Below are positions 5,173 to 43,255 of a DNA stretch of 64,000 nt, piece after piece. Numbering within the stretch: position 1 is the first letter of the stretch; every line of letters starts with the position of its first letter. Location: the NCBI GenBank assembly GCA_965243415.1, contig OZ251549.1, forward strand, positions 2,555,632 through 2,619,631. The letters are read 5' to 3'. The position numbers and the translations under genes were made by a program. Source of the DNA: Candidatus Marinacidobacterium sp. (GTDB lineage: Bacteria; Acidobacteriota; Vicinamibacteria; Marinacidobacterales; Marinacidobacteraceae). The notes below the pieces were generated by a model. The model saw nothing but the letters and a program-made list of their open reading frames with translations. It was not told the DNA's origin and ran no database searches.

Positions 5173-5258
5173 GCCGAAGTGGTGGAATGGAAGACACGTG
5201 CGCTTGAGGGGCGTATGGGATCAGTCCCGTGGGGGTTCGAATCCCCCCTTCGGCACCA
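5173..5258 (+). tRNA. tRNA-Leu (anticodon GAG), encoded CCA
   Basis: Manual fold: acceptor GCCGAAG/CTTCGGC; D-arm GTGG..CAC; anticodon stem TGCGC/GCGTA with loop TTGAGGG (anticodon GAG); long variable arm; T-arm GGGGG-TTCGAAT-CCCCC; discriminator A plus CCA. Confidence 0.85.
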
Positions 5259-5321
5259 GCGCCGCCGGTTCCCGGGGCGCCCGCGGGGGTCGGGGGCGGC
5301 GGGAGTCTTGAGGTTCTACGG

Positions 5322-5675
5322 ATGGCTTCGGGCGAGAACGCGATGACCGGGAGGGGCCGGGCGCTGGAGGATCTGTTCCTCGACCGGTGCCTGAAGGGGG
5401 CGGAGGTGCTGCGGAAACTGCTCGGTCGGCCCCGCACCGAGTTCCTGCGGATGATCGGGGAGCACGGCGCGGTCGGGGCGACGAAACGGCTCCTCCGGGC
5501 GCCGCGGGCGAGCGACACCTTCACCGTCCGGTGGGAGAAGGGGAAACTCGACCTCACGATGGAGTGGTTCGTGGTCGGCGAGCCCGAGTGGGATCCGCTT
5601 TTCGACGACGAGGATCGCCGGGCGGCGGCGCGGCGGCTGCGGGACTACGGGTGCGTCCCGCCGCGGGATTTCTGA
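5322..5675 (+). CDS. hypothetical protein (117 aa)
   Basis: ATG at 5322 with high third-position GC. Product MASGENAMTGRGRALEDLFLDRCLKGAEVLRKLLGRPRTEFLRMIGEHG... has no family I can name. It is the first gene after the tRNA. Confidence 0.45.
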   Translation: MASGENAMTGRGRALEDLFLDRCLKGAEVLRKLLGRPRTEFLRMIGEHGAVGATKRLLRAPRASDTFTVRWEKGKLDLTMEWFVVGEPEWDPLFDDEDRRAAARRLRDYGCVPPRDF

Positions 5676-5745: not shown

Positions 5746-6339
5746 TTACTCGGAAGAGTCTGCGGCGGGACCGGCGGGTCTCCCGGTCGCCTGTTCCAAC
5801 CGCTCCGGCATCTTCCGGGTGGCCGCCTGCCGTTCGATGCGGATCTCCCGGATTCGGGCCTCCGCTTCCGCGTCGGTCCGGTGGGCCGGGTGCTCCGCGA
5901 GGCTGCGGAGCGCCTCGATCGCGTCGCGGTTGCGGGCGCTCGGGGTGTCCGGGTCGGGCCGGACCAGCGTCGGGCGGGGCTTTGTTTCGCTCGGGGTTTC
6001 GTTCGGGGGTTCGCTCCGGGGCGTGCTCGTCGCGGTCGGGTCGGGGGGTTCAGGGGCAGGATTCAGGGCAGGGGATCGAGGTTCGGGGGGACTCGGGGGC
6101 GGGGAGTCATCGCCGGCGGGCGGCGCCACCGGCTCCTCCGGCGGCAGGTCGAACTTCTCCAGCATCTGCTGGGTGGACTCCTCGCGCATGAGGCGGATCT
6201 CGCGGATCCAATCCTCCATCTCCATCTCCATCCGCGCCGGAAGCGGTTGCGCCCGGAGTTTGCGGAGCGCTTCGAGGGCCTTGCGGTTGCGGTCGCTCAG
6301 GTCTGCCGGGCCGGTCCGGTTCGGGGGTCGCTGCGGCAT
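5746..6339 (-). CDS. protein with two tandem copies of a VapB-antitoxin C-terminal (toxin-binding)-like module, no RHH domain
   Basis: Module 1 is SDRNRKALEALRKLRAQP...EDWIREIRLMREESTQQMLEKFD; module 2 is SARNRDAIEALRSLAEHP...EARIREIRIERQAATRKMPERLEQ. They are joined by a Pro-rich linker. Both resemble the C-terminus of the VapB at 7479..7805 (QEALEALRRLRELP...EAWIREIRLMGEESDRHMLDKIARA). Confidence 0.5.
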   Translation of the reverse strand: MPQRPPNRTGPADLSDRNRKALEALRKLRAQPLPARMEMEMEDWIREIRLMREESTQQMLEKFDLPPEEPVAPPAGDDSPPPSPPEPRSPALNPAPEPPDPTATSTPRSEPPNETPSETKPRPTLVRPDPDTPSARNRDAIEALRSLAEHPAHRTDAEAEARIREIRIERQAATRKMPERLEQATGRPAGPAADSSE

Positions 6340-6395: not shown

Positions 6396-6653
6396 TCAGG
6401 GTCGGCAGGACTCGGGGGCGGGATCATCGCCGGCGGGCGGTACGACCGGCCGGTTCCCGGCCCGCGCGGTCTTGTCCAGCATCCGGCGGGTGGATTCCTC
6501 GCGCATGAGGCGGATCTCGCGGACCCAGGCCTCGCGCTCTGCGTCCGTCCGCGCCGGCGGCTGCGCCCACAGTTTGCGGAGCGCTTCGAGGGCCTTGCGG
6601 TTGCGGTCGCTGAGGGCGTCCCGGGCGGGCTGGCCGGGCGTTGGGTGCGGCAT
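6396..6653 (-). CDS. single-module antitoxin-C-terminal-like small protein (85 aa)
   Basis: Internal ATG at 6653 gives MPHPTPGQPARDALSDRNRKALEALRKLWAQPPARTDAEREAWVREIRLMREESTRRMLDKTARAGNRPVVPPAGDD. The longer N-terminal extension in the ORF track is low-complexity. Confidence 0.45.
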   Translation of the reverse strand: MPHPTPGQPARDALSDRNRKALEALRKLWAQPPARTDAEREAWVREIRLMREESTRRMLDKTARAGNRPVVPPAGDDPAPESCRP

Positions 6654-7101
6654 CGTTTCGCTCGGGGTCTTAGGCTCGGGGTCTCGTTCCTGATGGCGTT
6701 CGTGGCGGTCGATTCCGGGAGTCCGGGTCGAGGGAGGCGGATCGTCGGCGCTTCCGATTTCGTTGCCGGCGGACTGCTCGCCGGGTTCGGAACGGAGGGA
6801 ACCGGGGAAGCGGGAGGCTACCGCGCCGGATCGCGGCGCGCCGGGCGACGACCCGTGAGCCGGATCCGCGGCGCAGCGCCGCGAAGGCCACCCCGGCGCC
6901 GACGCCGCCCCGGGCGACACCCCGTGTTGCGGTAACCCCCCGGGGGCGCGAGGGCTGCCGGACGCGGTCTCGAAGGTCCCGACAGGTGGGCCTCGTTCCA
7001 TCTCTCCCGCCGCCTGCGTGTCCCCGCGTCCCTCGCTCGAGTTCGGGGGAGACGTCCGGAAGAGACGGAAACGGGCATTCCGTCGCCGGAGGCGATCCGC
7101 G

Positions 7102-7482
7102 TCAGGTCGTCAGGACGGTGAGCCCTTCGATCTCGAACCGGCGGAAGTCCGCGTAATTGCTCGTAGCCACCGCGGCGTTCGACGACAGCGCTACCGCGGC
7201 GATGAGGCAGTCCCTGAACAATTTGCGCCGCCGCCCGGAGATGTTGAAGAGCCGCGCCGCGGTCTCGGCATCGGGGCCGGTGAGCGGAACCGTTTTCGAC
7301 AGCAGTCGACGGGCGGTGCTCCTCTCGTCGGGCGTCGTCGGCCCGCACCAGAACTCGGCCCAGGCGACAGCGCTGATCTGGATCTCGGCGCCCTGGTCGA
7401 TCCACTCCTGGAGTCGCGAATGCTGCGGCAGGTCGGGATCCAGGGCTCCGATCAGGAAACTGGTGTCGAGGTGGATCGTCAC
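7102..7482 (-). CDS. vapC: type II toxin VapC (PIN-domain RNase)
   Basis: MTIHLDTSFLIG (Asp6), the AWAEF Glu, RDCLIAAVA Asp and TSNYADF are the canonical PIN acidic positions. There is a 4-nt ATGA overlap with the upstream antitoxin. Confidence 0.85.
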   Translation of the reverse strand: MTIHLDTSFLIGALDPDLPQHSRLQEWIDQGAEIQISAVAWAEFWCGPTTPDERSTARRLLSKTVPLTGPDAETAARLFNISGRRRKLFRDCLIAAVALSSNAAVATSNYADFRRFEIEGLTVLTT

Positions 7483-7805
7483 GAAGCATCGTCTCCGGAA
7501 ATCGGCTTCCTTCTCGCCCGCGCGATCTTGTCCAGCATGTGGCGGTCGGACTCCTCGCCCATGAGGCGGATCTCACGAATCCACGCCTCGGTCTCCGCGC
7601 TCGTCCTCGCCCTCGGGAGCTCTCGGAGGCGGCGGAGCGCTTCGAGCGCCTCCTGCTTGTAGGGCTTCTCCCGTTCTGCGGTGGCGCGGATGGCGCGGCG
7701 CACCGCTTCCGTCCGGGAGACCTCCCAGTGGGCGGCGAGTTCCTCCACCCGTCCGGCGGTGTCGAGGTCGAACGAGTAGGTGAACTTCCTCGTGATGCTG
7801 GCCAT
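7479..7805 (-). CDS. vapB: type II antitoxin VapB, ribbon-helix-helix N-terminus plus toxin-binding C-terminus
   Basis: Start chosen at MASITRKFTYSFDLDTAGRVEELAAHWEVSRTEAVRRAIRA (RHH beta-alpha-alpha). The C-terminal half matches the repeated module. The ORF-track start 7838 would read through the operator palindrome. Confidence 0.75.
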   Translation of the reverse strand: MASITRKFTYSFDLDTAGRVEELAAHWEVSRTEAVRRAIRATAEREKPYKQEALEALRRLRELPRARTSAETEAWIREIRLMGEESDRHMLDKIARARRKPISGDDAS

Positions 7806-7829
7806 ACAGCCATATCCTAGCGTATGGCC
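7800..7829. promoter_or_regulatory. perfect 8-bp-arm inverted repeat GGCCATAC-N14-GTATGGCC overlapping the vapB start codon (candidate RHH autoregulatory operator)
   Basis: ggccatacagccatatcctagcgtatggcc is seen directly. The spacer is an AT island. Confidence 0.5.
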
Positions 7830-8141
7830 AGCCAGCACGGGTCGGGCGGAGGATGGCCGCGGGGGAGATCGGGGTTCGCCGGCGGTCGGGAACGGCGGAT
7901 GAGCGGGGTCGGCGGGCGGGGATCCGGTCTCCGCGACCCTGCGGGCCGCCTCGGGTTCCGGCCCTGCGGAGTCGCGCTCGGCCGCCGGTCCGGCCGGGTC
8001 CCCGTTCGTTCCGGGGGCGCCTCGCCGGGGTCCGCGGGACGGCGGGCGGCCGGTTCCGGGACGACGACGGGCGGCCGCCGCGGGGCTTCCGCCGTTCTCG
8101 ATGGCAGAGGCCGGCGGCGCCTCGGGGCGGGGAGCCGGGCC

Positions 8142-8714
8142 TCAGTCGGAGTCGCGGCTGTCGGACGGGACCGGCTTCCGTCCCGCCCGTTCGAACTGCT
8201 CCTGCAGATGGCGGGTGAGCTCTTCCCGCCGGAGGCGGACTTCGCGGATCCAGGCCTCGATCTCCTCCTTCGTCCGGGTTCCGGGCAGGGTCTGCAGCCG
8301 GCGGAGCGCTTCGAGTTGCTTCCGTCTGCGTTCGATCCGGGCCGCGGGGTCGGACGGCCGGGAGGGCCGGGGCTCGCCGGGGAGCGGGTTCCCGGCGGTC
8401 GCGTCGGGCGATTCGGGGTCGGGCGATTCGGGGCCGGGCGGTACCGGTTCGGGGGAAGCGGAGGGGACGCGGGGGTGGGCGTCGTCGTCGCCGGGGGGCG
8501 GTGCGACCCACGGCATCCACGCCCGTTCCAACTTCTCCAGCAGGTGGAGAGTGGACTCCTCTCCCATGAGGCGGACTTCGCGGATCCAGGCCTCGGTCTC
8601 CTCCTGCGTCCGGGTCCCCGGCAGGGCCTGCAGCCGGCGGAGCGCTTCGAGTTGCTCGCGCCGGCGGTCACTCCGGGCGGCTGCGTCGGGCCGGTCGTCC
8701 GGTCGGGCGGACAC
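8142..8714 (-). CDS. protein with two tandem antitoxin-C-terminal-like modules
   Basis: SDRRREQLEALRRLQALPGTRTQEETEAWIREVRLMGEESTLHLLEKLERA and ERRRKQLEALRRLQTLPGTRTKEEIEAWIREVRLRREELTRHLQEQFERA, each followed by a P(V/W)...GDD tail like the other copies. Confidence 0.5.
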   Translation of the reverse strand: MSARPDDRPDAAARSDRRREQLEALRRLQALPGTRTQEETEAWIREVRLMGEESTLHLLEKLERAWMPWVAPPPGDDDAHPRVPSASPEPVPPGPESPDPESPDATAGNPLPGEPRPSRPSDPAARIERRRKQLEALRRLQTLPGTRTKEEIEAWIREVRLRREELTRHLQEQFERAGRKPVPSDSRDSD

Positions 8715-8740: not shown

Positions 8741-9151
8741 CTAGCGCGGGTCGGGGGCCGGGGACTCGGGCTCTGCGCCCGGCGCGGCCTCGCCGCCCTC
8801 CGGCTCGGGTTCGGCGGCGGGGGTCGTCTCGCCCGCTTCCTCGGCCTCGTCCGGGGCGGGGGTGGTCGCGGCGGGGAGGGGAACGCCGCCGGTCGCCTCG
8901 TCCACCACCGTCTGCTGGCCGGCTTCGGAGCCGATGTAGCCGAGCAGGAGCGAGGTCACCATGAAGATCGCGGCGCAGACGGCGGTCACCCGGGTGAGCA
9001 GGGTGGCGGTGCCGCGCGCGCCGAAGGCCGCCTGGGTGCCGGCGCCGCCGAAGGCGCTGGCGAGGTCCTGTCCCTTCCCCTGCTGGGTCAGCACCACCAG
9101 GATGAGGAAGACGCAGACCAGGACATGGAAGACGGTCAGGAGGATGGTCAT
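8741..9151 (-). CDS. secG: preprotein translocase subunit SecG
   Basis: MTILLTVFHVLVCVFLILVVLTQQGKGQDLASAFGGAGTQAAFGARG matches the SecG signature (hydrophobic helix, QxGKG, AFGGG), followed by an acidic Pro-rich tail. ATG verified at 9151. Confidence 0.85.
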   Translation of the reverse strand: MTILLTVFHVLVCVFLILVVLTQQGKGQDLASAFGGAGTQAAFGARGTATLLTRVTAVCAAIFMVTSLLLGYIGSEAGQQTVVDEATGGVPLPAATTPAPDEAEEAGETTPAAEPEPEGGEAAPGAEPESPAPDPR

Positions 9152-9221
9152 GGGTTCGGGGGCGGGGGATTCCCGGGCGGGAGGGATCGGGCGAGGCGGC
9201 GGGGGAAGGGATCGGCCGCGG

Positions 9222-10124
9222 TCACGCGCCGACCGCGGCGGCGCAGACGGCGAGGAAGGAATCGGCCGCGAGACTCGCGCCGCCGACGAGCAGGCCGTCC
9301 ACCTCGGGACTTTCGAGGAGCGCGGCGGCATTATCGCCGTTCACCGATCCCCCGTAAAGAATCCGGGTGGTGGCGGCGGCTTCGTCGTTCCACACCCGGG
9401 CGACCTCGGCGCGGAGGGCGCGGTGCATCGCGGCGGCGATCTCCGGGGTGGCGGTGCGCCCGGTGCCGATGGCCCAGACCGGTTCGTAGGCGAGGGTGAC
9501 GGCCGGGCGGTCCGCCTCCGGGATCGCCTCGAGGACGGCCCGCAGCTGGGCGCCGACCGCGTTTTCGGCGTCGCCGGCGTCGCGCTGCTCCCCGGTCTCG
9601 CCGACGCAGAGGACCGGGGCCAGGCCGGCGGCGAGGGCGGCTTCGGCCTTCTCCCGGACCTCGGCGTCGGTCTCGCCGAAGACCCGGCGGCGCTCCGAGT
9701 GGCCCACCAGGGTCAGCGAGCAGCCGCAGGCGGCCAGCATGGAAGCGGAGACGGCCCCGGTGAAGGCGCCGTCGGGCTTGGGGAACAGGTCCTGGGCCGC
9801 CAGGCCGATCGGGCTGCCGTGGAGGGCGTCCCGGACGGCGACGAGCGCCGGGAAGGCCGGGGCGATCGCCAGGTCGAGGGTCGGCGCCGCTTCCCCGTCG
9901 TCCGGCGTTTCCCCGGCGCGTTTCCCGGCTCTCCTGCCGGTGTTCCGTTCGGCGTTCCGGTCGGGAGGCAGGACCTCGCGGCGCGCCCGTCCGGCGATGA
10001 CGCGGGCCAGGCCCCCCGCTGCGGGCGGGGTCAGGTTCATCTTCCAGTTCGCGATGACGAACGGGGTGCGCGCGGTCGCCGCGTCTGCGGAGGGGGCCGG
10101 GGTGGAGTCCGGGGAGTCGGTCAT
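9222..10124 (-). CDS. tpiA: triosephosphate isomerase
   Basis: FVIANWKMN, GHSERR, LCVGET, AYEPVWAIGTG and ILYGGSV are TIM signatures. Start ATG verified at 10124. Contains a ~35-aa low-complexity insertion after the first strand. Confidence 0.9.
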   Translation of the reverse strand: MTDSPDSTPAPSADAATARTPFVIANWKMNLTPPAAGGLARVIAGRARREVLPPDRNAERNTGRRAGKRAGETPDDGEAAPTLDLAIAPAFPALVAVRDALHGSPIGLAAQDLFPKPDGAFTGAVSASMLAACGCSLTLVGHSERRRVFGETDAEVREKAEAALAAGLAPVLCVGETGEQRDAGDAENAVGAQLRAVLEAIPEADRPAVTLAYEPVWAIGTGRTATPEIAAAMHRALRAEVARVWNDEAAATTRILYGGSVNGDNAAALLESPEVDGLLVGGASLAADSFLAVCAAAVGA

Positions 10125-10213
10125 GGAGGTCGTCGGGGAGTCGGTGGGGGATCGGGTGGGGGGCGGGTTCCGGTCGGTTTCGCGCGGCCGCCGGCGGCGG
10201 CGTCTCGCGGGTC

Positions 10214-11449
10214 TCACGAGGGTTCCGGTTTCCTTTCGCCGCCGGACGCCGCCATCGGGAGCCAGGTCAGGGCTTCCACCCCGGGCAGGGGCTCGCCGGC
10301 GAGGAAGGCCAGCGAGGCGCCGCCGCCGGTGGAGAGGTGGCCGATGCGGTCGGCGACCCCGGCGCGGCGCACTGCGAGCAGCGAGTCGCCGCCGCCGACG
10401 ATGGTGACCGCGCCCCGGTCGGCGGCGTCGGCCACCGCCGCGGCGACCGCGTTCGTGCCGAGGGCGAAGCGGGGGTCTTCGGCGAGCCCCATCGGGCCGT
10501 TCCAGAGAACCGTAGCCGCGCCGGCGATCTCCGCGGCGTAGCGGGCGGCGGTCGCCGGACCGAGGTCGAACCCGGCCCGGTCGTCCGGCAGGCTGTCGGC
10601 GGGGAACACCGGCGGGGGATCCGCGGCGTCGGCGGGAGCCGCGCGCTGGTCTTCGGGGAGGGCCAGCCGGTCGGGATGGCGCCGCAGCAGCCGCTCGGCG
10701 TCGGGACGGCGCTCCGGTTCGACGAGCGACCGGCCGGTGGGGAGGCCCTTCGCGGCGAAGAAGGTGTAGGCCATCGCGCCGCCCACGAGCACCCGGTCGG
10801 CGCGGGCGAGCAGGGACTCGACGACGCCCAACTTGTCCGAGATCTTCGCGCCGCCGAGCACCGCCACGAAGGGCCGCCGCGGCGCGGTCAGGGCCCGGCC
10901 CAGCCAGCGGAGTTCCCGTTCCAGCAGCGGGCCGGCGGCGGCCCGGGGGAACCGGCGGGCGCAGGCGTCCACCGAGGCGTGGCGGCGGTGGGCGGCGCCG
11001 AAGGCATCGTTCGCGTACTCGTCCCCGAAAGCGGCCAGGGCGGCGGCGAACCGGGGGTCGTTCGCGGTCTCGCCGGGGTGGAAGCGGAGGTTCTCCAGGA
11101 CCAGCACTTCTCCCGGCGCGACTTCGGTGCGACGGCCTTCCGTCTCGTCGGCGCCGACCGGGCGGGGGCGGAACCGGACCGGGGCGTCGAGGAGTGCGCC
11201 CAGCCGCTCCGCCACCGGGCGAACGCTCAGCGCCGGGTCGGGAACGCCGCGCGGCCGGCCGAGGTGCGTCGCCAGGACCACCCCGGCGCCGGCCTCCCGG
11301 GCGGTCCGGATCGCCGGGAGCGCCGCCCGCAGGCGGAAGTCGTCGGCGACGACGCCGTGGTCGAGAGGCGCGTTCAGGTCGGCGCGGAGCAGCAGCCGTT
11401 TCCCCCGCAGGTCGAGGTCGGCGAGGCGCTGCCGGCGCTGCGGTTCCAC
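10214..11449 (-). CDS. pgk: phosphoglycerate kinase
   Basis: RADLNAPL, FGAAHR, GGAKISDK, GGGASLAFLAG and NGPMG are Pgk signatures. There is no in-frame ATG; GTG at 11449 is the proposed start (VEPQRRQRLADLDLRGKRLLLRADLN). Confidence 0.85.
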   Translation of the reverse strand: MEPQRRQRLADLDLRGKRLLLRADLNAPLDHGVVADDFRLRAALPAIRTAREAGAGVVLATHLGRPRGVPDPALSVRPVAERLGALLDAPVRFRPRPVGADETEGRRTEVAPGEVLVLENLRFHPGETANDPRFAAALAAFGDEYANDAFGAAHRRHASVDACARRFPRAAAGPLLERELRWLGRALTAPRRPFVAVLGGAKISDKLGVVESLLARADRVLVGGAMAYTFFAAKGLPTGRSLVEPERRPDAERLLRRHPDRLALPEDQRAAPADAADPPPVFPADSLPDDRAGFDLGPATAARYAAEIAGAATVLWNGPMGLAEDPRFALGTNAVAAAVADAADRGAVTIVGGGDSLLAVRRAGVADRIGHLSTGGGASLAFLAGEPLPGVEALTWLPMAASGGERKPEPS

Positions 11450-11692
11450 GGCGGCGCCGAACGATATGCGACCGGCGCTCCCCGGCGCGCCCTTCGGGGG
11501 CGGCCGCGCCCGGGGGACGGACGGGCCCTCCGCGGAGGGGTTCCACGGCGGCGCCGCCGCGGGCAGAGGGGAACCGGGGCGGCGCCGGGGGAAGGGGGAC
11601 GGGGCTCCGGGCCGTCTCGACGAGGCCGCCCGGCGGTCGCGGCCGCGCCCCGGCCGCCCGTCGTCGAGCCCGTCCGATCGGTGCTCCCGCTC

Positions 11693-13050
11693 CGGATCGA
11701 CCCGATATTGAGCCGACGGATCGACCCGATAAGTGGCGGGGCCGGCGCGGATCGACCCGATAATGAGCCGATGGCGGATCGACCCGATAATGAGCCGATA
11801 CGGATCGAGCCGACGGGAGCGGCGCAGGTGTGGATCGACCCGATAATGAGCCCGATGGCGGATCGACCCGATAGTGAGCCGGTGCGGATCGACCCGACAG
11901 GGGCAGACCGGTGCGGATCGACCCGATAGTGAGCCGATAGGGATTGAGCCGATGGGAGCGGGGCCGGTTCGGATCGACCCGATAGTGAGCCGGTACGGAT
12001 CGAGCCGATGGGAGCGGTGCGGTGCGGATCGACCCGATAGTGAGCCGACAGCGGATCGACCCGATAGCGGATCGAGCCGATAGGAACGGGGCCGGCGCGG
12101 ACCGAGCCGATAGCGGATCGACCCGATAAGGAGCGGTTCCGGCGCGGATCGACCCGATAGTGAGCCAGTGCGGATCGAGCCGAACAGCGGATCGACCCGA
12201 TACGAGCGTTGGACCGCTGCGGATCGACCCGATAGTGAGCCGATAGCGGATCGACCCGATGGGATCGAGCCGATATGGATCGACCCGATGGGAGCGGGCG
12301 CCGGTGCGGATCGACCCGATAAGGAGCGGTTCCGGCGCGGATCGACCCGATAGTGAGCCAGTGCGGATCGAGCCGAACAGCGGATCGACCCGATACGAGC
12401 GTGAACCGCTGCGGATCGACCCGATAATGAGCCGACAGCGGATCGACCCGATAGGAACGGGCAGGTGTGGATCGACCCGATAGTGAGCCCCGGTGCGGAT
12501 CGACCCGATAGTGAGCCGATGCGGATCGACACGATAGGAACGGGGCCGGCGCGGATCGACCCGATAGGAACCGGCCGGTGCGGATCGACCCGATAATGAG
12601 CCGATACGGATCGATCCGATGGGAGCGGGGCCGGTGCGGATCGACCCGATAGTGAGCCGACACGGATCGAGCCGATGGGAGCGGGGCGGCGTGGATCGAC
12701 CCGATAGTGAGCCGATGGCGGATCGAGCCGATAGGAACGGGGCCGGTGCGGATCGACCCGATAAGGAGCGGTTCCGGCGCGGATCGACCCGATAGTGAGC
12801 CAGTGCGGATCGAGCCGAACAGCGGATCGACCCGATACGAGCGTGAACCGCTGCGGATCGACCCGATAATGAGAGGTTCCGGTGTGGATCGACCCGATAG
12901 TGAGCCGATAGCGGATCGACCCGATGGGAGCGGGCCGGTGCGGATCGACCCGATTGGTGCGGGCAGGCGCGGATCGACCCGATAGGCGCGGGGGCTGGCG
13001 CGGATCGACCCGATAGTGAGCCGACACGGATCGAGCCGATGGGAGCGGGC
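11693..13050. repeat. minisatellite of about 45 copies of a 15-nt core CGGATCGACCCGATA (variant CGGATCGAGCCGA) with 6-17-nt semi-repeated spacers and higher-order repeats of ~120-150 bp
   Basis: Seen directly. Three long minus-strand ORFs cross it only because the minus strand lacks stops in all frames; the plus strand has TGA in most units. Confidence 0.9.
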
Positions 13051-13373
13051 CATGTCGATCGGCAACGAAAATGTCCCGCTTTCGAGCAACGAAAATTTCC
13101 CACTCCGGAGGAGGGCGGGCCGGGGGGATGGAAGGACGATCCGGGGGAGTTCTCGCCGAGGTCGGGGGGCGCGAACGGCGGTGCGGGCGGCGCCTCGGGG
13201 GCGAGCCCGGTGACCGGTGGAGGGTCGGTGCGGGCGGCGCCGGACTTCGGGCTCGACCCTCGGCGGCGGGAACTCCCTGCCGGGCTCCGGCGCGTCGGCC
13301 GGGCCGCGCGGAAGGGGCCGTTCCCCGGGTGCTGCCGGGACAGGGCGGGAGCGGTCGAGTCGCCCCGAAGTCA

Positions 13374-13440
13374 TCCCCGGGATCGACCCCGGGATCGACC
13401 CCGGGATCGCCCCCGAATTCGACCCCGAGATCACCCCCGG
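13374..13440. repeat. 12-nt tandem repeat (CCGGGATCGACC-like) x5
   Basis: cgggatcgaccccgggatcgaccccgggatcgcccccgaattcgaccccgagatcacccccgg. Confidence 0.7.
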
Positions 13441-13599
13441 CGTCCTCGCAGCGGCTTCCCGAGGTCGCCGGGAGGCGCCTCCGCGCCGCGGGCCGCCGGT
13501 AGCGGCGCCCGTCCGGCCCGACTCGCCGCCGGTCGCCCCCCCTTCGCGCAGCCGCCAGCCGGAAGGGAGGCCGCCCGGGCCGGTCGCCGGGTTGGTTAT

Positions 13600-13850
13600 C
13601 CTCCCGGCCTCCAACACACGGCTTCAGGTTTTCGGCTGTCGGGCCTTCCGGCGGACCGGACGAAGAGGGAACCGGGTGCGAATCCCGGACGGCCCACGCC
13701 ACTGTGATCGGAATGCCCGACCCGGGCCGCTCCGCTTCGGCGGGACGGCGCCCACTCCCGGCGGTCGCCGGGGGGAAGGGGGGAACGGCGGGAGGCCTGT
13801 CGCTGCCGCAGCGACGAGGCGTCCGTTCCGTGAGTCAGGAGACCTGCCCG
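13600..13850 (+). ncRNA. cobalamin (AdoCbl) riboswitch
   Basis: AAGAGGGAACCGGGTGCGAATCCCGGACGGCCCACGCCACTGTGA carries the B12-box core (GGGAA-C-GGTG-AA-TCC...GCC-CACGCCACTGT). Downstream are GGGAAGG and AGTCAGGAGACCTGCC 3' elements. It lies directly upstream of a TonB-dependent receptor and a cobalamin adenosyltransferase gene. Confidence 0.8.
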
Positions 13851-13895
13851 GAGCCCCGAACCGCGCGATCTCTTCGCTGGGAAGGATGGTTCTCC

Positions 13896-16424
13896 ATGCG
13901 ACAGCACCGCTTCGGTGCCTCCGGCCTCCGCCACCGACTTCCGGTGGGGCGACTTCGGGAAGGTCTCCCGGGCCTCACCCCGATCCCCACTCCGCTCCTC
14001 TTCGCCCTCGTGGCGCTCTCCCTCGCCGCCCCGCCCCCGGCGGCGGCCGGCCCCCGGGCAGCGGCCGGCCCGCCGTCGGCGCCCGCCGCCCTCCGCGCCT
14101 CCTCGCCGACCGCCGCCCCGACGACCCCGCTCGCCGTGGTCGTCCGCGGCGCCGACGGCCGCCCGGTCGCCGGGGCCCGGGTCTTCGCCGACTCGGTACT
14201 CGGCGACGCGCGCTCCGCCGCCCGCACCGACGCCGCCGGCGCCGCGGTGTTCGCGGACCTGCCTCCGGGCCGCTACCTCCTCTCCGCCGCCGCCCCCGCC
14301 GGGACCGCCGCCCCGGTCGAGGCCGACTCCTCGGCGCCCCTCGCCGGCCCCATCCCGCTGACCCTGCGGTTCGCCGGCCACCGGGAGGCGGTCGTCGTCT
14401 CGGCGGCGCTCGGCGCCCGGGCGGAACGCGAAGCGGGGGTCGCGGTGGACACCCTGACCGCCGCGGAACTGCGCGAACGCGGCGAGTGGGGCGTCGTCGA
14501 AGCCCTGCGCGGCGTCGCCGGGATCCTGGTGCGCCAGGATGGCGGGCCGGGGACGCTGGCCCGGGTCCAGGTGCGCGGGCTGCCCGGTTCAGCGACCGCG
14601 GTCGTCGTGGACGGCGCCCCGCTCCGGGACGCGGCCTCGATCACCGGCGGCAGTTCCTCGCTCCTGCCGGGGGTCGGCCTGCTCGGGGTGGACCGGGTGG
14701 AGATCCGGCGCGGCGGCGGTTCCACGCTCTACGGCACGAACGGGATGGGCGGCGTGCTGCAGATCGTCACCCGGGCCGGGAGCGGCGGCGATTCCCTCCG
14801 CGCCCGGGCCGAGGCGGGGACGAAGGGGCAGGCCGCGGGAGCCGCCGAATGGGGCGCCGGCGGGCCCCGGGGCGCGGTCTTCGCTTCGCTGGGCGAACGC
14901 CGGATCACCGCGGGCGCCGACGGCGATGATCCCTTCGAGAACACCACCGCCTCCCTCCGCGCCGGCCGGCGGCTCTCCCCGGGCCTCCGCCTCTCCGCCC
15001 GGGCCTTCTGGTCGGACGCCGAACTCGGGCTGAACGACAACCCCTTCCCGGTGGGCGGCCCGGCGACCGGAGTGGTCGAAGCCGCCGCGGTCCCGCTCGA
15101 GACCGTCCGCGCCCACGAGGGCGGCGCGGCGCTCGCGGACCTCGACCTGGGCGCGGCCACCTTCGTCCCGGCGACGAACGACCCGGACGCGAGGCAGCGG
15201 ACCCGGTTCCTGTCGGCGCTGGTCTCGCTCTCCGGGAATCCGACCTCCGCGCTCGCCTGGACGCTCCGCTACCACGACCTGACCACCCGCCGGGAGAACA
15301 CCGACGGGCCGGCCGGGGTGAACCCCTGGGATCCGGCGGCGCCGCAGACGATCACCTACGCCGCCGGGATCCGCACCGGGTCGGCCCGGGTCGAGTTCGG
15401 GGGCGGCCGGCACCGGCTGCTGCTGGGGGCGGAGGCCGAGTGGGAGCGCGCCGAGACCCTCGACCCGGCGTTCTCCACCCGGCTGGGGCAGTCCGGGCTC
15501 GCCGCCGTCGTCCAGGAGGAACTGCGCGCCGCCGAGGGCCGCGCCTCGCTCCGCGGCGCCGTCCGCTTCCACCGCTTCGAGACCCGGGCGCCGGAACTCG
15601 AACCGGCGGCGGGCGGTCCGTACGCCGGGACCCTGCCGCCCCCGGGCGCGAGCGCGGTCACCGCGGACCTCTCCGGGACCGCGGCGCTCGGCGGCGGCCT
15701 GCGCCTCAGCGCCTCCTGGGGCCGGGGTTTCCGCGCGCCCTCCCTCTACGAGCGGTTCGGGACCTTCTACTCGACCTTCGGCTACTCGGTCTTCGGCGAC
15801 CCGCGCCTCGAACCGGAGTTCACCTCCGCCGCCGACTTCGGGCTCGACTGGGAATCGGCGGACGGCGGGGTCCGGTTCCGGGCGGCGGCGTTCCGCTCCC
15901 GGAGGCCGCAGGTGATCGCCTTCGGCTCCTTCGACGCCGCTGCCGACCCCTTCGGGAGGTTCGGCGGTTACGAGAACACCGCCGCCGGCGGCGCCCGGGG
16001 CGGGGAGACCGACCTGGCGCTCGCCCCCGGCGCCCGGACCCGCGCCCGGTTCCAGTACACCTTCACCGACGCCGACGCCCCGGACAACGCCCCCGCCGCG
16101 TTGCCCGCGGCCTGGCTGCTCCCCCGCCACCAGGGGGCGGCGCTGCTCTCCGGCCGGGTGACCGACCGCTTCGGCTGGGCCGCGGACCTGCTGCTGTCCT
16201 CCGCGATGCACGCGCCGCTCTACGACCCGAACACCTTCTCCACCCGGGTGTTCCGCTTCGCCGGCCTCCGCCGGCTGGACCTGGCCGCCTCGCTCGAGAT
16301 CGGGCGCGGGCTCCGCCTGCGGTTCGTGGTCGAGGACGCGTTCGACGACGCCGCCTTCCAGAGCGGCGGCTTCCGGCCGCTGGGGCGGGCCCTCCGGGCG
16401 AACCTGGAGTGGAGCGGACGCTGA
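13896..16424 (+). CDS. TonB-dependent receptor (BtuB-like cobalamin/corrinoid transporter) with N-terminal CarboxypepD_reg-like domain
   Basis: Start at MRQHRFGAS with SD GGAAGGA and a signal peptide LLFALVALSLAAPPPAAA. Carries a plug domain (VDTLTAAELRERG...VQVRGLPGS...VVVDGAPL) and a C-terminal beta-barrel. The ORF-track start 13704 would overlap the riboswitch. Confidence 0.85.
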   Translation: MRQHRFGASGLRHRLPVGRLREGLPGLTPIPTPLLFALVALSLAAPPPAAAGPRAAAGPPSAPAALRASSPTAAPTTPLAVVVRGADGRPVAGARVFADSVLGDARSAARTDAAGAAVFADLPPGRYLLSAAAPAGTAAPVEADSSAPLAGPIPLTLRFAGHREAVVVSAALGARAEREAGVAVDTLTAAELRERGEWGVVEALRGVAGILVRQDGGPGTLARVQVRGLPGSATAVVVDGAPLRDAASITGGSSSLLPGVGLLGVDRVEIRRGGGSTLYGTNGMGGVLQIVTRAGSGGDSLRARAEAGTKGQAAGAAEWGAGGPRGAVFASLGERRITAGADGDDPFENTTASLRAGRRLSPGLRLSARAFWSDAELGLNDNPFPVGGPATGVVEAAAVPLETVRAHEGGAALADLDLGAATFVPATNDPDARQRTRFLSALVSLSGNPTSALAWTLRYHDLTTRRENTDGPAGVNPWDPAAPQTITYAAGIRTGSARVEFGGGRHRLLLGAEAEWERAETLDPAFSTRLGQSGLAAVVQEELRAAEGRASLRGAVRFHRFETRAPELEPAAGGPYAGTLPPPGASAVTADLSGTAALGGGLRLSASWGRGFRAPSLYERFGTFYSTFGYSVFGDPRLEPEFTSAADFGLDWESADGGVRFRAAAFRSRRPQVIAFGSFDAAADPFGRFGGYENTAAGGARGGETDLALAPGARTRARFQYTFTDADAPDNAPAALPAAWLLPRHQGAALLSGRVTDRFGWAADLLLSSAMHAPLYDPNTFSTRVFRFAGLRRLDLAASLEIGRGLRLRFVVEDAFDDAAFQSGGFRPLGRALRANLEWSGR

Positions 16425-16443
16425 CCCCGGTGCGGACGCGGCG

Positions 16444-17019
16444 ATGAGCATCTCCACCACGCTCGGCGACGGCGGGCAGACCCAACTGGGCGACCGCCGG
16501 GTGGCCAAGACCTCCGCCGCCGTCGAGGCGCTGGGGGCGCTGGACGAGTTGGGGGCGGCGCTCGGGTTCGCCCGCTCGCTCGCCCGTTCCGAACCGATCC
16601 GCCGGCGGACCGAGGAGTTCCAGCGGGCGCTCTTCGAGGTCGCCGCCGTCATCGGCGCCCCGAAGTCGGCGGTCGGGGAGGCGCCTCCGGGAGTGGGCGC
16701 GGAGTTCGTCGCCGGCGTCACCGCCGAGGTCCGGGATCTCGAGGGCCGGGAGGGGATGCTGAGCGACTGGGCGCTCCCCGGCGGCCACGCCGGGGCGGCG
16801 GCGTTCGACCTGGCGCGCACCGCCTGCCGCCGCGCCGAACGGGCGCTGTTCCGGCTGCGGGAGAGCGGGACGGAAACGCCGCCGGCGCCGGAGTCCCTCG
16901 CCTTCCTGAACCGGCTGTCGGACCTCCTCTGGCTCTACGGCCGGGTCCTGGAACGCGAGTCCGGGGTGGACGGCGCGCTCCGCCGCCGGGAAGGTCCTCC
17001 CGCCTCCGAACCGGCCTGA
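16444..17019 (+). CDS. ATP:cob(I)alamin adenosyltransferase, PduO type
   Basis: MSISTTLGDGGQTQLGDRRVAKTSAAVEALGALDELGAALGFAR is the PduO-type N-terminus (T-x-GD-G-x-T-x-L). It lies downstream of the riboswitch-controlled receptor. Confidence 0.85.
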   Translation: MSISTTLGDGGQTQLGDRRVAKTSAAVEALGALDELGAALGFARSLARSEPIRRRTEEFQRALFEVAAVIGAPKSAVGEAPPGVGAEFVAGVTAEVRDLEGREGMLSDWALPGGHAGAAAFDLARTACRRAERALFRLRESGTETPPAPESLAFLNRLSDLLWLYGRVLERESGVDGALRRREGPPASEPA

Positions 17020-17548
17020 TCCCCGGGGCCGGGCGCCGGCGGTCGGGGGGAACGCCGGGCGGCGGCCGGCGACTCGGCGCGCGCCGGCCGAGCGCTTCCA
17101 TCGCTTCCGGGACCGCGGGGCCGGCGCCGCTCCGTCGCCGGGGACCCCCGGTTCCCCTCGAACCGGGTTCCCGGCACTCTTCCGCCGCCGCGACGGGGCG
17201 CCGGAACGCCGGGTCGGAGGGGACCGCGCTCCCTGCCGCCCGGCCGATCCTCCCGAATCCGGCCTCTCCCCGACTCGGCGCCGGGCCGCTCGCCGGGGGG
17301 AGGCGCCCCCGGACCGGTTCCCCCGGCCCGGCGGACCGCCGCCCGGCGCCCGTTCCTTTCGGCCGGCGCTTCGCCGGCGGCCGCGACGGGAGTCCGTTCC
17401 GCGCCGGTTCCGCTCCGCCGCCGGGGCCGGGCCCCGGGGAGCCGGTCGCCCTCCCTCGGCTCTGCGGCCCGGCGGCGCCGCCGCGATCCCGGCGGGGAAG
17501 GGGGGGGCGCAGACTCCCCGGGCGACCCGCCGAACGCCCCGGCGCAGT

Positions 17549-18862
<1,314 letters not shown>

Positions 18863-18883
18863 TCAGGAGCACTACCCACCACC

Positions 18884-19492
18884 ATGACGAACCTCACCGT
18901 CTTCCACCCCACCCCGACCCTGCGCCGGTTCTTCCGCGAGGGCTTCCCCGGCGACGCGCTCTTCGGGACGCTCTTCGGCGAGCCCTCCCCCGAGGCCGGC
19001 GCCGAGCCCTCCCCCGAGCCCTCTCCCGAAGCCCGCCCCCGCTGGAGCCCGCGGGTGGATGTCCGCGACCGGGGGCCCGAAGTCGTCATCGAGGCCGACC
19101 TGCCCGGCGTCCGCCGGGAGGATCTCTCGATCCGCTTCGACTCCGGCGCGCTCATCGTCGAGGGCCACCGCGACCGGGCGACCGACGCCGCGCCGCTCGT
19201 CGAGAACGCCGACGCCACCCCGGAGGCCGACGCCGACGCCTCCGCCGACGCCACCCCGGAGGCCGACGCCGACGCCACCGCAACCGACGCCGAGCCGTCC
19301 CCGACCGGGAACGGCCGGACCGTCTGGTCGCGCCGCGAGCGGGTCACCGGCCGGTTCCGCCGCGCCTTCCGCCTCCCGGAGACCGTGGATGTCTCCCGCA
19401 TCCGCGCGGAGTCCCGGGACGGGGTGCTCACCATCACCCTGCCGAAACTGGAGCAGGCGCTCCCGCGCCGGATCGAGGTCGCGGTCCACTGA
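18884..19492 (+). CDS. Hsp20/alpha-crystallin family small heat-shock protein
   Basis: The alpha-crystallin domain runs from WSPRVDVRDRGPEVVIEADLPGVRREDLSIRFDSGALIVEG to SRDGVLTITLPK. Between them sits an acidic low-complexity insert (DATPEADADASADATPEADADATATDAEPSP). Confidence 0.85.
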   Translation: MTNLTVFHPTPTLRRFFREGFPGDALFGTLFGEPSPEAGAEPSPEPSPEARPRWSPRVDVRDRGPEVVIEADLPGVRREDLSIRFDSGALIVEGHRDRATDAAPLVENADATPEADADASADATPEADADATATDAEPSPTGNGRTVWSRRERVTGRFRRAFRLPETVDVSRIRAESRDGVLTITLPKLEQALPRRIEVAVH

Positions 19493-29892: not shown

Positions 29893-30960
29893 CTAGTGGA
29901 CCGTAGCGGGAGTTCGGATAGTGATCCGCCGAGAAACATCAGAGTACGTCCACTTGTAGGGCCGGGCGACCTTGTTGTGCTCACGGATGAAGCGAAGGAT
30001 CTTCCGCTCCAGATCCGCAACCGAGGTGAAGATGCCGCGGGCCAGAACATCCCGCTTCAGCTTCGAGAACCACAGTTCGATCTGGTTCAACCACGACGAG
30101 TAGGTCGGCGTGTAGTGGATGTGGAAGTTCGGCTGGGCCGCCACGAAGGCTTTGACCGCCTTCGTCTTGTGGACCGAGAGGTTGTCTGCGATCACGTGGA
30201 TCTCCCGGCCCGGCGGCTGGCTCGCCACGATCTCACCGAGAAAGTCGAGGAACGAGGCTCCGTTGACCCGTTCCACCGTCTTCCCGTGAACCACACCGGT
30301 CTGCGTCTCCAGGGCCGCGATCAGCGACCGGGTGCCATGCCGGTAGTACTCGAAGCCGTGGCGCTCGGCTCGGCCCGGGGACATCGGAAGCACCGGCACC
30401 GTCCGTTCCAGGGCCTGGATCGCCGTCTTCTCGTCCACACTGAAGACGGCTGCGTTCTCCGGAGGGTTCAGATACAGGCCGATGACATCGGCCGCCTTCC
30501 GCTCGAAGTCCGGGTCCTTCGACGCCAGATAGTTCCTCTTCGAGTGCGGCTGGAGGTTCGCGCTCGTCCACACCCGGTGCACCAGGGTGTGGCTGACGCC
30601 GAGGTGTCGCGCCAGGCGCCGCGTGCTCCAGTGCGTGGATCCATCCGGCGGCTTCTCCCGGGTCGTCGCCAGGACCTTCGCCTCCATCTCCGGTGTCTGA
30701 ACCGTCCTCGGCGACCCCGGCGCCCTCCGCGAGGCCAGCGCCGGCACCCGACCTTCCCGGAAGCGCTTTCCCCACTTGTTCACGAAGGCGGGCGTGCAAT
30801 CCAACTTGTTCTGGATCACGGACCACGGCTTCCCCGAGGCGAGCAGGAGAATCACCCGGGCGCGCCGGGCGTCTTCCGCTCTCACGGCGCGAGACTGGAC
30901 GCGCCGGTTGAGCTCGCGTCGTTCCGGTGGTGACAGGATGATGGGATCGCGTCTCCGCAT
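29893..30960 (-). CDS. IS630-family transposase (HTH plus DDE_3)
   Basis: MRRRDPIILSPPERRELNRRVQS...WSVIQNKLDCTPAFVNKWGKRF is the HTH. The DDE region carries VFSVDEKT, IHVIADNLSVHKT and SSWLNQIELWFS. The stop codon TAG is formed by the TA duplication plus the flanking base. Confidence 0.85.
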   Translation of the reverse strand: MRRRDPIILSPPERRELNRRVQSRAVRAEDARRARVILLLASGKPWSVIQNKLDCTPAFVNKWGKRFREGRVPALASRRAPGSPRTVQTPEMEAKVLATTREKPPDGSTHWSTRRLARHLGVSHTLVHRVWTSANLQPHSKRNYLASKDPDFERKAADVIGLYLNPPENAAVFSVDEKTAIQALERTVPVLPMSPGRAERHGFEYYRHGTRSLIAALETQTGVVHGKTVERVNGASFLDFLGEIVASQPPGREIHVIADNLSVHKTKAVKAFVAAQPNFHIHYTPTYSSWLNQIELWFSKLKRDVLARGIFTSVADLERKILRFIREHNKVARPYKWTYSDVSRRITIRTPATVH

Positions 30961-34910: not shown

Positions 34911-36882
34911 CGCGGCCGAAGTTCCAGAGCGGTGAGGCCACAGAACCGTTGTAGTTCTTGGGGTGCGGGGCATTTCCGGAGTTCCGGCTCTGGCTACGAC
35001 AGGGCGGAGACGCCGAGGAGGTCGAAGGCCCGGCTCTGGACCGGGGTGAGATCGGTGATCTGATCGAAGGTGTGCTCGGTGCCGGGGAAGCGCATGGTCA
35101 ACCGGCTGAGGGCGCCGAGGTTCCGAAGCAGCGTGGCGTAGGAGTGCAGGGCCAGCCCGTCTTCGGTCTTGCGGGCGGCGGTCTTGGCCCGGGTCTGGGG
35201 CGAACGGACCGCGGGCGCCACCACCGAGGAACGGGCGGCCCGGGCGGCGGCCGGGTCTTCTTCCTGGAAGAGGAGCGGAGCCAGGCGGCGGCGAAGGTGC
35301 CATTCCAGGTGGTAGGCCAGCATCCGCAGGAAGAAGTGCGCCCGCACCCGGTCCGGGCGCCGGTGGTGGATGGGGCGCACCTGCAGGGAGAAGGTCTTGA
35401 AGCAGCGGAAGGCCGTTTCCACCACGCCCAGCCGTTTGTAGGCGGCCACGGCCCGGGGGCCGTCGAGGTCCGCTTCGGGCACATTGGTGCGCACCACATA
35501 GAAGCCGTCGAGGTCCGCTTCGGCAGCAATACGCTCCTCGCGGCGCCGGTAGGCGAAGTGTCCGCGCCCGGTCTCGATCTCGAAGAACTTGCGCGTCCGG
35601 TAGCGGTCCAGGATGCGGGTGGAACGCTCGATGATGGCCCTTTCGCTGCGCAGCGGCGAACTGGCCCGCCGGGTAGCTTCGACCAGTTTCTCCAGGCCCG
35701 CCTCGGTGGCCGCCAACAACTCTTCCCGCCGGCGCCGGCGATCGCCCGCCGTCCGGGGGTTGCGGCAAACGACCAGTCGTTCTCCCGGGAACTCCGGCGA
35801 CCGCACTTCCGCCAGATCCCGCTCCTCGAACAGCGACGGCTGCACCGTCCCGCCGCGGAACAACTCCCGGATGTCGGCGCGGCGCAGCGCGGTGATCCAC
35901 GAAAGCCCTTCCAAACCGATCAGGTCCTCCCGGATCCGGGCGTCGGTCAGCATCCCCCGGTCCCCCACCAGCACCACCCGCCGCAGGCCGAACCGCTCCC
36001 GCACCTTCTCCACCTGCGCCGAGAGCGTCTTCGGATCGGCGGTGTTCCCCTCGAACACCTCCACCGCCACCGGGCACCCTTCCTCGGAGCACAGCACCCC
36101 GAACACCACCTGCAGCGTCCCGCGCTTGCCGTCCCGGCTGTAACCCCGCGCCGCCAGCGGGCAGCGGCGGCCGGTGAACCAGCTGGAGCTCACGTCGTAG
36201 AGGACGATCGAACCTTCGCTCAGGTGTTTGCGCGCCAGCCGGGTCTCGACGGCGGCCTGGCGCCGTCCCAGCCAGTCCAGGGCGGCGTAGAGGTCGTTCT
36301 CGTCCACGCGGCCCAGGTCGAGCAGCGAGCCCAGGGTGGAGGTGGCGGTCGGGGGGTTCAGGGTTCGGGCGGTGGCCAGTTTGGGGAGCGGATCGAGGGC
36401 GCTGGCGACGATGAGGGCCACCGCCAGGTCGCGTTCCCGGGAGCGTCGGGCGGCGAGGGTCCGGTCGAGGCCCAACCGGCGCAGCGTTCCGAGGGCGGCG
36501 GCGGCGTGGCCGTGGGGGAGGGAGCGTTCGGAGCGCAGGGCCAAGCCGGCGGGGACCAAGTCTTCGCCGCGGAGGGCCCGGGCGATGACCTCGATGAGGT
36601 AGGGCGAGAGGTGGGTGATGTTGCCGAAGGTGCGGTGCTTGACCTTCGGGCCTTCGCGGAAGGAGCGTCGGAGGAGGACGGAGGTGTAGGTCTTCCCGTT
36701 CTGCCTGCTCTTGATCCTGGCCACATGTCCGGGGCTCTTCCTGCGGGGCATTTCGGGGGATTTTCGCAGGGAATGGGGGCGATGTCAAGCATATTACTGG
36801 CTACAAAATGACGCCGGGATCGGGCGGAAACCGATGGCGCCCAACGGCTTGAGGCCATTTCCCGGCTGGAACTTCGGACGCG
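34911..36882. mobile_element. IS1634-family insertion sequence (~1.97 kb) bounded by ~22-bp inverted repeats
   Basis: Left arm is cgcggccgaagttccagagcgg at 34911. Reverse complement of the right arm at 36861 is cgcgtccgaagttccagccggg (19/22). It encloses a 585-aa transposase. No clear target duplication resolved. Confidence 0.65.
34994..36751 (-). CDS. IS1634-family (IS4-related) DDE transposase
   Basis: 585 aa starting MPRRKSPGHVARIKSRQNGKTYTS. Contains GLRRVVLVGDRGM, DGFYVVRTN and HFFLRMLAYHLEWHLRRRL, the family-typical blocks. Confidence 0.85.
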   Translation of the reverse strand: MPRRKSPGHVARIKSRQNGKTYTSVLLRRSFREGPKVKHRTFGNITHLSPYLIEVIARALRGEDLVPAGLALRSERSLPHGHAAAALGTLRRLGLDRTLAARRSRERDLAVALIVASALDPLPKLATARTLNPPTATSTLGSLLDLGRVDENDLYAALDWLGRRQAAVETRLARKHLSEGSIVLYDVSSSWFTGRRCPLAARGYSRDGKRGTLQVVFGVLCSEEGCPVAVEVFEGNTADPKTLSAQVEKVRERFGLRRVVLVGDRGMLTDARIREDLIGLEGLSWITALRRADIRELFRGGTVQPSLFEERDLAEVRSPEFPGERLVVCRNPRTAGDRRRRREELLAATEAGLEKLVEATRRASSPLRSERAIIERSTRILDRYRTRKFFEIETGRGHFAYRRREERIAAEADLDGFYVVRTNVPEADLDGPRAVAAYKRLGVVETAFRCFKTFSLQVRPIHHRRPDRVRAHFFLRMLAYHLEWHLRRRLAPLLFQEEDPAAARAARSSVVAPAVRSPQTRAKTAARKTEDGLALHSYATLLRNLGALSRLTMRFPGTEHTFDQITDLTPVQSRAFDLLGVSALS

Positions 36883-42440: not shown

Positions 42441-42504
42441 CCCGACCACTCCGGCCGGCGCCTCCGCGCCGGCCGGCCCGAATGAGCCGGGGTCGCTGAC
42501 CGGT

Positions 42505-43125: not shown

Positions 43126-43255
43126 CGAGGATTCCCCGGAGGATCAGGGATTCGACGACCCCCTGCTCTCCCCGGTCCGCCAGCGCGCCGGCGATCCGCT
43201 CGTCCTCGAACAGGGCGTCCGGAGGATCGAACGGCTTGACGGTCGTTCGATCGTC

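Follow-up and report, generated by a model that had tools for sequence, protein, structure and literature searches.

What is an array of short head-to-tail repeats for when it encodes no protein and stands upstream of a glycolytic gene? The question is raised by a 64,000-nt stretch of Candidatus Marinacidobacterium sp. contig OZ251549.1, analysed here at its full length and called the window in the following, which carries a non-coding repeat array of 1.36 kb at positions 11693–13050 upstream of pgk. We propose, with a probability of roughly 0.4, that the array is clade-specific, varies in copy number and consists of sites for a predicted sequence-specific DNA-binding protein. In bacterial chromosomes, non-coding tandem arrays that are both large and conserved are uncommon, and most lack an explanation. 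The present one offers an unusually clear contrast between a near-invariant 11-mer and drifting spacers, and it occurs in a clade of uncultured, very GC-rich bacteria with array-less, syntenic outgroups. The array hence lends itself well to the question whether bacterial minisatellites are selected as multi-site protein platforms, acting by titration or insulation, or are merely tolerated. What makes it interesting is this evolutionary sign of constraint on the core, together with the natural array-less outgroups, rather than a demonstrated new mechanism.

Architecture of the array

The array is made of 51 units in a single orientation, obtained by cutting at every core start, with unit sizes of 14–32 nt. 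On the plus strand each unit reads CGGATCGA(C/G)CCG(A/T)TA followed by a spacer of 0–18 nt; in pgk direction the core is TA(T/A)CGG(G/C)TCGATCCG. When the 64 kb were scanned for the 15-mer core CGGATCGACCCGATA, 46 matches with at most two mismatches were found (28 of them exact), all on the plus strand within 11693–13041 and none elsewhere in the window, whereas dinucleotide-preserving shuffles of the window gave 0.51 on average and never more than 3. A first-pass annotation of this DNA had recognized the repeat but, with about 45 copies of a 15-nt core, had counted slightly too few. The core is followed either by no spacer or 1–2 nt, by 11–12 nt that are themselves a shortened core, (A/G)TGAGCCGATAG, by a G-rich spacer of 14–16 nt (GGAGCGGGGCCGGTG and relatives), or by AGGAGCGGTTCCGGCG or CGAGCGTGAACCGCTG; the class GGAACGGGGCCGGYG was also found among the units. 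Our segmentation thereby recovered all spacer classes named earlier, that is, those with TGAGCCGATAG, AGGAGCGGTTCCGGCG, GGAACGGGGCCGGYG and CGAGCGTGAACCGCTG.

Units are further organized into higher-order blocks. A block of 135 nt comprising 4–5 units (reference copy 12297–12431) recurs with 99% identity at 12739–12873 and with 77% ungapped identity at 12104–12238, as anticipated by the earlier description of 120–150-bp blocks occurring three times. In addition, a 190-nt block at 11878–12067 is repeated with 90% identity at 12545–12734. Tandem Repeats Finder (TRF) reported periods of 56, 85 and 193 within the array. By definition, the array is a bacterial minisatellite or variable-number tandem repeat (VNTR), that is, a tandem repeat with a unit of 10–100 nt (TRF periods here are 15–85 nt) whose copy number differs among close relatives. 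Its G+C content of about 66% compares with 66–81% in the window and 73% in the genome.

Conservation of core and spacers

The evidence that carries our reading comes from 342 cores in eight genomes, the window and seven relatives, located by pattern with at most one mismatch. Their consensus in pgk direction is [C/G]TA[T/A]CGG[C/G]TCGATCC[G][C]. Within the 11-mer CGGSTCGATCC, 10 of 11 positions are 93–100% invariant, and position 4 is G in 159 and C in 173 cores. Within single arrays, the mean pairwise difference was 0.01–0.06 for the 11-mer (equal-length units), 0.10–0.37 for the four adjoining positions outside the search pattern and 0.27–0.44 for the spacers, with a value of 0.08 in the small sample from relative L022, whose contig ends in the array; at spacer composition, 0.62 would be expected for random sequence. 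The pattern is well seen in relative L013, where the 11-mer has at most one mismatch in all 26 regularly spaced units and 22 of the 25 listed spacers are unique. The spacers are mostly unique, with a length held at 14–18 nt, and in pgk direction they contain 55% C with the loose consensus CGACCGCCACCGCTCC. A core and a spacer that are duplicated together should diverge equally if both evolve neutrally. The large excess of spacer divergence thus argues for purifying selection on the core, which is our main argument.

Outside the array, the unique flanks toward pgk and toward the riboswitch on the other side cannot be aligned among the more distant array-bearing genomes, apart from some 35 nt preceding the pgk start and an element beside the riboswitch. 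The core is common to these genomes nevertheless, at 87–98% Pgk identity. Moreover, the 12-mer CGGnTCGAnCCG is palindromic apart from one position pair.

Occurrence in related genomes

All relatives used here are metagenome assemblies. A search with Pgk gave sequences of 87–92% identity, then a gap, then two of 75% (L019) and 69% (L020); a further relative at 98% (L025) was taken from a cluster listing. The seven relatives with Pgk 87–98% identical have the array at the same site, in the same orientation and with the same core, and their gene order matches the window where contigs reach far enough. In gap-free assemblies the number of cores is 38 in L025, 26 in L013, 31 in L021 and 71 in L017, the last consisting mostly of bare tandem cores of 15–16 nt (TRF period 15 × 104). 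At least 48 cores are present in L015, which has a 100-N scaffold gap within the array (8830–8929), and at least 41 and at least 11 in L023 and L022, respectively, where the contigs end within it. Copy number, which the first-pass annotation had suggested comparing between strains, does differ between close relatives, with 51 against 38 cores at 98% Pgk identity. Between these two closest genomes, whole blocks are inserted or deleted in the array, and the flanks are about 97% identical.

In contrast, the core is absent on both strands from L019 and L020. Both keep the arrangement of pgk and the btuB riboswitch, with an intergenic region of about 360–440 nt in which the putative pgk and btuB promoters are about 110 nt apart. 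From this it follows that the array was gained in one clade and then kept by every member examined, with at least 26 copies in each gap-free assembly. No single-copy ancestral seed of the core was apparent in the array-less relatives, where only chance-like matches with four edits occur (e.g., TATCGTTCGCGTCCG before the L019 pgk). Scans for an exact double-core pattern in GTDB species genomes, JGI metagenomes and IMG/VR yielded single chance matches and no arrays, and blastn of the array against 72,556 plasmid and 50,697 phage records gave no match.

The array breaks short-read assemblies at a core-metabolism locus: the short-read contigs L014, L016, L018 and L024 also end within it. It draws false gene calls as well (L015 7939–8727, L025 8841–9926 and a database protein, P0149, discussed below). 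For this lineage, it would serve as a strain-typing marker.

Genomic context and putative promoters

The array occupies part of a 2.1-kb intergenic region between diverging genes; its distance is 244 nt to the pgk start codon and about 560 nt to the riboswitch. On the minus strand, pgk (10214–11449, 411 aa; Pfam PGK, E = 2e-123) is followed by tpiA (9222–10241) and secG (8741–9331). On the plus strand, a cobalamin riboswitch aptamer (13609–13865; Rfam, 64.5 bits) precedes a btuB-like gene for a TonB-dependent receptor (13896–16424, ATG at 13896) and a pduO-type cobalamin adenosyltransferase gene (16444–17019), beyond which gap lies on the minus strand (17549–18862). Assignment of the array to the promoter region of pgk-tpiA-secG, as made earlier, hence holds for the pgk side but is incomplete, since the diverging riboswitch on the other side had gone unmentioned and the region is shared with the riboswitch–btuB operon.

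Within the unique flank between array and pgk (11450–11692, minus strand), only the last 35 nt or so are kept across relatives. They include a −10-like TATCGT (11461–11466, minus strand) 11 nt before the pgk GTG start, and in the alignment this hexamer stands 8–11 nt ahead of the GTG in all relatives, including those without array. No Shine-Dalgarno sequence is present at the pgk start. This suggests that TATCGT marks the core promoter of pgk and that the mRNA is leaderless or has a very short leader. Toward btuB, a −10-like TATCCT (13597–13602, plus strand) ends 7 nt short of where the riboswitch match begins and sits in an element conserved in all relatives, again including the array-less ones; we infer it to be the putative btuB promoter. 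With conserved −10-like hexamers beside both the pgk start and the riboswitch start, the array probably lies upstream of both likely transcripts. As to the earlier idea of a contingency locus, a classical switch is unlikely, the array being placed about 150–280 nt away from the start codon of pgk and thus neither in the likely core promoter nor in any reading frame.

The customary gap-pgk-tpiA operon is split by the opposite-strand cobalamin riboswitch–btuB(–pduO) module in the whole clade (13597–19000 in the window; L013, L015, L020, L021, L025). This split is found in array-less relatives, too, and L020 has no pduO.

A predicted array of DNA-binding sites

The repeated element is a constrained quasi-palindrome of 11–12 bp, CGGnTCGAnCCG, placed in a probably untranscribed spacer between the diverging pgk and riboswitch–btuB promoters. 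We hence assume that the array most likely acts at the DNA level and that each core is a site for a sequence-specific protein, which the quasi-palindrome suggests to be dimeric. Twenty-six to 71 adjacent sites might then assemble into one large nucleoprotein platform, which could titrate the protein or form an architectural or topological barrier between the two promoters, with a conceivable effect on pgk or btuB. Copy number would shift fast as multi-unit blocks are gained or lost via unequal recombination or slippage. In agreement with sites that are retained, the array keeps its place and orientation in all clade relatives examined, although direct repeats delete easily. Binding sites had been among the options of the first-pass annotation; this option gains indirect support from the constrained core and the diverged spacers. 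Integration host factor (IHF)-like sites, also suggested there, do not fit, as the consensus WATCAANNNNTTR has no match in the window. The CggR operator of Bacillus, CGGGACN6TGTC, resembles the core only in CGGG, and no SorC-family gene was among the 40 open reading frames (ORFs) of the window scanned against Pfam.

We may further speculate that selection maintains dozens of operator-like quasi-palindromes as a dedicated chromosomal sponge or barrier between the glycolytic housekeeping operon and the operon for B12 uptake, and that changes in copy number tune the free level of the predicted binder or the insulation of the promoters. This more specific proposal is unlikely in our estimation; if true, bacteria would have their own counterpart of decoy or insulator repeat arrays.

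Several observations weigh against sites for a binding protein. Beside the array, or restricted to array-bearing loci, there is no regulator, partition or replication gene, and no candidate binder emerged from the scanned ORFs. Nor is the motif seen as dispersed operators, the 12-mer CGGSTCGATCCG having two one-mismatch matches in the 62.6 kb outside the array against about seven expected. Core spacing is not strictly phased, with 26–31 nt in the window, 30–32 nt in most relatives and 15–16 nt in L017, so that a rigid wrapped complex is not required; overall, spacings of 15–16, 26–27 and 29–32 nt occur. Searching for cores with at most one mismatch biases their diversity downward, although gaps in the spacing leave room for few degenerate cores. 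The comparison of orthologous positions between the window and L025 agrees in direction but with few sites, differing at 2 of 156 core, 9 of 200 spacer and 35 of 1053 flank positions. Copy numbers in relatives may be wrong, given metagenome assemblies and one scaffold gap inside an array. Finally, a scan for sigma-70 and terminator consensus gave no match in 11200–14000, so that promoter positions follow from conservation only.

Alternative explanations

Among the alternatives, a functionless, self-perpetuating minisatellite is the most probable, not far behind the binding-site array. Such a repeat would have arisen once in a widened pgk/btuB intergenic region and persist by slippage or unequal exchange, and its uniform core would result from the repeat mechanism, by exchange registering on the core or by short-patch conversion, instead of selection. 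Copy number and block structure indeed differ even at 98% Pgk identity, near-identical higher-order blocks mark recent duplication, and cores of the G and C type at position 4 occur in runs within arrays, as homogenization would give. The lack of a partner protein among the scanned ORFs and of dispersed sites in the 62.6 kb is also what a functionless repeat predicts. Bacterial VNTRs and Staphylococcus aureus repeat (STAR) elements for which no function is known are well documented (PMC3532100). On the other hand, joint duplication of core and spacer predicts equal divergence, and in most arrays spacers are 5–25 times more divergent than the 11-mer. One 11-mer has been kept in eight of eight genomes whose unique flanks have diverged beyond alignment, and non-functional direct repeats tend to be deleted in bacteria, which the retention of at least 26 copies in gap-free assemblies does not reflect.

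Quite unlikely is a role of the array as RNA, either as a sponge transcribed toward btuB or as a long leader toward pgk. In btuB direction, about 50 CGGAUC and 25 AGGAG/AGGAAC motifs could soak up a GGA-binding protein of CsrA/RsmA type or ribosomes, as GGA is present in every plus-strand core and Shine-Dalgarno-like GGAG in many spacers. CsrB/RsmZ-type sponge RNAs similarly pack many GGA motifs into one non-coding stretch. They differ from the array, which has no Rfam match, conserved hairpins or evident promoter and terminator, and whose motif is longer than a GGA site. Plus-strand RNA folded no better than shuffled sequence (mean z −0.3 to +0.4 in the window and four relatives), only L017 being clearly negative at −2.1; hence, GGA would not be displayed in conserved hairpin loops. 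A leader in pgk direction would contain self-complementary CGGGUCGAUCCG elements, and this RNA of the window does fold better than shuffles, with z of about −3 to −4. However, z is about 0 where the C-type core prevails, in the pgk-proximal parts of the L013, L015 and L021 arrays. The G-type core CGGGUCGAUCCG is fully self-complementary via G-U pairs, which explains the negative z of the window; loss of the signal with the C-type core marks it as a by-product of the quasi-palindrome and not as conserved structure. In other bacteria, repeats located upstream of genes were suggested to serve post-transcriptional regulators as sites (PMC4679880). Against such a function here, the array gave no Rfam match at gathering score or E ≤ 1, Csr/Rsm families included, and the scan of 11200–14000 had no promoter or terminator consensus to offer. 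The array is flanked by the conserved −10-like elements, both of which face outward, and the constraint spans 11 nt, beyond the need of a GGA site. A CsrA-type sponge or a hairpin per unit is therefore unsupported by fold z-scores and Rfam.

A chromosome-maintenance element is very improbable, whether as an array resembling iterons or centromeres or as a polar barrier to replication forks at a terminus. In its favour, plasmid centromeres and iterons are built as polar tandem arrays of short sites for a protein, the plus-strand GC skew changes sign near 13–14 kb, and genes diverge from the array. Among the scanned ORFs, though, no par, rep, dnaA or tus-like gene is nearby, nor dnaN, and there is no DnaA-box cluster: the 64 kb hold one TTATCCACA-like match with one mismatch, at 1548, which is chance level. 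L019 and L020 share the gene order without the array, so the site is no ancestral origin or terminus element, and the plasmid and phage records without a blastn match also speak against it. Gene strand accounts for part of the skew change, which moreover is based on 64 kb only. We rejected oriC, which is marked by clustered DnaA boxes with an AT-rich unwinding element and is often close to dnaA/dnaN, as a candidate, with no DnaA-box cluster, no dnaA or dnaN in the scanned ORFs and no array in syntenic relatives. As an observation on its own, plus-strand skew is positive over 1–13 kb and negative over 14–35 kb, switching at the array; it remains negative over 24–35 kb despite minus-strand genes and thus is not purely a gene-strand effect, but 64 kb are too little for a terminus or origin call.

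That the array encodes a repetitive minus-strand protein (with IGSIR, YRVDP or SGRS motifs) or is an assembly artefact is extremely improbable. All three minus-strand frames are open over the 1.36 kb, and a gene caller placed a 361-aa ORF on the L025 array (8841–9926), but the open frames exist because the unit has no stop triplets on that strand; the plus-strand frames have 19–20 stops each, and in the relatives' arrays apart from L025 every frame of both strands contains 2–14. Cores are spaced by 14–32 nt, not a multiple of three, so that no frame is kept, and GC by codon phase is 0.65/0.65/0.68 in the array against 0.84/0.57/0.93 in pgk. When 5.8 billion proteins were searched with the translated array, the one match was weak: P0149, a spurious ORF that extends from the antisense of the riboswitch into the array at the orthologous site of a further relative. 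With no codon-position signal, frame-breaking spacing, stops in relatives and no protein family, the earlier judgement that coding was unlikely despite the open frames stands. As to an artefact, at least seven other samples gave independent assemblies with the array, several of them terminating within it, and in the window the array is part of a 4.48-Mb source contig.

We also rejected an island of GATC or restriction–modification sites, as GATC shows no avoidance in the genome, with 404 occurrences outside the array against 157 expected, and there is hence no sign of restriction pressure.

Comparison with known repeat systems

Like other bacterial VNTRs, the array has a head-to-tail intergenic unit of 15–31 nt, variable copy number and higher-order blocks that are gained or lost, and it breaks short-read assemblies. 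Unlike typical VNTRs, it is unusually long, with 26 to at least 71 units over 0.75–1.6 kb, is kept at one orthologous site over 87–98% Pgk identity and has a near-invariant 11-nt core while the rest of the unit drifts.

Plasmid centromeres and iterons, such as sopC of F (12 × 43 bp), parC of R1 (10 × 11 bp) or the P1 incA iterons, have 5–12 copies beside the genes of their binding proteins. They share with the array polar tandem short recognition sites, some with an internal dyad, and act by cooperative binding or titration. The array differs by its 26–71 copies, its chromosomal housekeeping context and the missing par or rep gene.

Clustered regularly interspaced short palindromic repeats (CRISPR) have repeats of about 23–55 nt, unique spacers of about 26–72 nt and usually cas genes nearby. 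The array has a similar repeat–spacer look with spacers of fairly constant length. However, its repeats have 15 nt, and its spacers of 0–18 nt are mutually related and partly recur, as the first-pass annotation had noted in setting CRISPR aside; the 40 scanned ORFs contained no cas domains and the array no leader. Repetitive extragenic palindromic (REP) sequences and bacterial interspersed mosaic elements (BIMEs) are hairpin-forming palindromic units, dispersed and of alternating orientation; we rejected them, since the cores of the array have one orientation at a single locus.

Closest in layout are the STAR elements of S. aureus, with a conserved 14-bp direct repeat, variable spacers that measure 40 bp or more and many loci in each genome; one well-studied locus with 1–6 copies lies upstream of the glycolytic operon with gapR (PMC3532100). 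Both systems have a short direct repeat (14 bp there, 11–15 bp here), variable spacers, an intergenic position, a tendency to expand and contract and a conservation specific to lineage and locus, and the gapR locus, like the array, precedes glycolytic genes. In contrast to STAR elements, the array has spacers of 0–18 nt, far more copies and one locus in 64 kb, and it is unrelated in sequence and belongs to another phylum of different base composition.

Neighbouring features

A satellite array of five 12-nt repeats, CCCCGGGATCGA, lies at 13375–13437, 325 nt from the main array, and its unit has GGATCGACCC in common with the main core. In relatives, this position is taken by other 12-nt repeats (L013 9032–9073, L015 8276–8309). 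The satellite may be a precursor or a converted relative of the main repeat. Adjoining the array end, a relatively AT-rich 16-mer, GCAACGAAAAT(G/T)TCCC, occurs twice, 24 nt apart (13062–13077 and 13086–13101); this pair is present only in the window and in its closest relative (L025 8793 and 8817) and could be a binding site or promoter element.

Further neighbours identified in the Pfam scan include hsp20, murJ, a xerD-like gene and a vapBC-like pair. The latter, with a ribbon-helix-helix antitoxin (7479–7838) and a PIN toxin (7102–7482), is surrounded by small paralogous minus-strand ORFs (5746–6339, 6396–7001, 7479–7838, 8142–8714) that have the motif ALEALRRL..ART..E.EAWIREIRLMREES in common, some with two copies, and none of which has a Pfam match. 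The same paralogues are found in L013 (12736–14946), the C-terminus of the vapB-like antitoxin bears their motif and array-less L019 has fewer copies. Extra small paralogues of this kind, related to the vapB C-terminus, were the only genes specific to array-bearing genomes, with no DNA-binding candidate among them.

Two genes for AAA_21-type ATPases (40532–41797 and 43256–44380) flank a DUF4276 gene (42505–43110), and this region (40532–44380) looks like a duplicated defence-type ATPase/nuclease module. Transposase genes at 29893–30918 (DDE_3 with helix-turn-helix domains) and 34994–36751 (DDE_Tnp_1) are about 17–24 kb from the array, and the array core is not present near either. Beside a tRNA (5173–5255), a conserved plus-strand ORF of about 115 aa without Pfam match (5229–5675) has the motif ...GAEVLRK.LGRPRTEFLRMIGEHGAV.ATKRL... 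and was found in all array-bearing contigs that are long enough (L013, at 15158–15505, L015, L017, L021, L022, L023 and L025).

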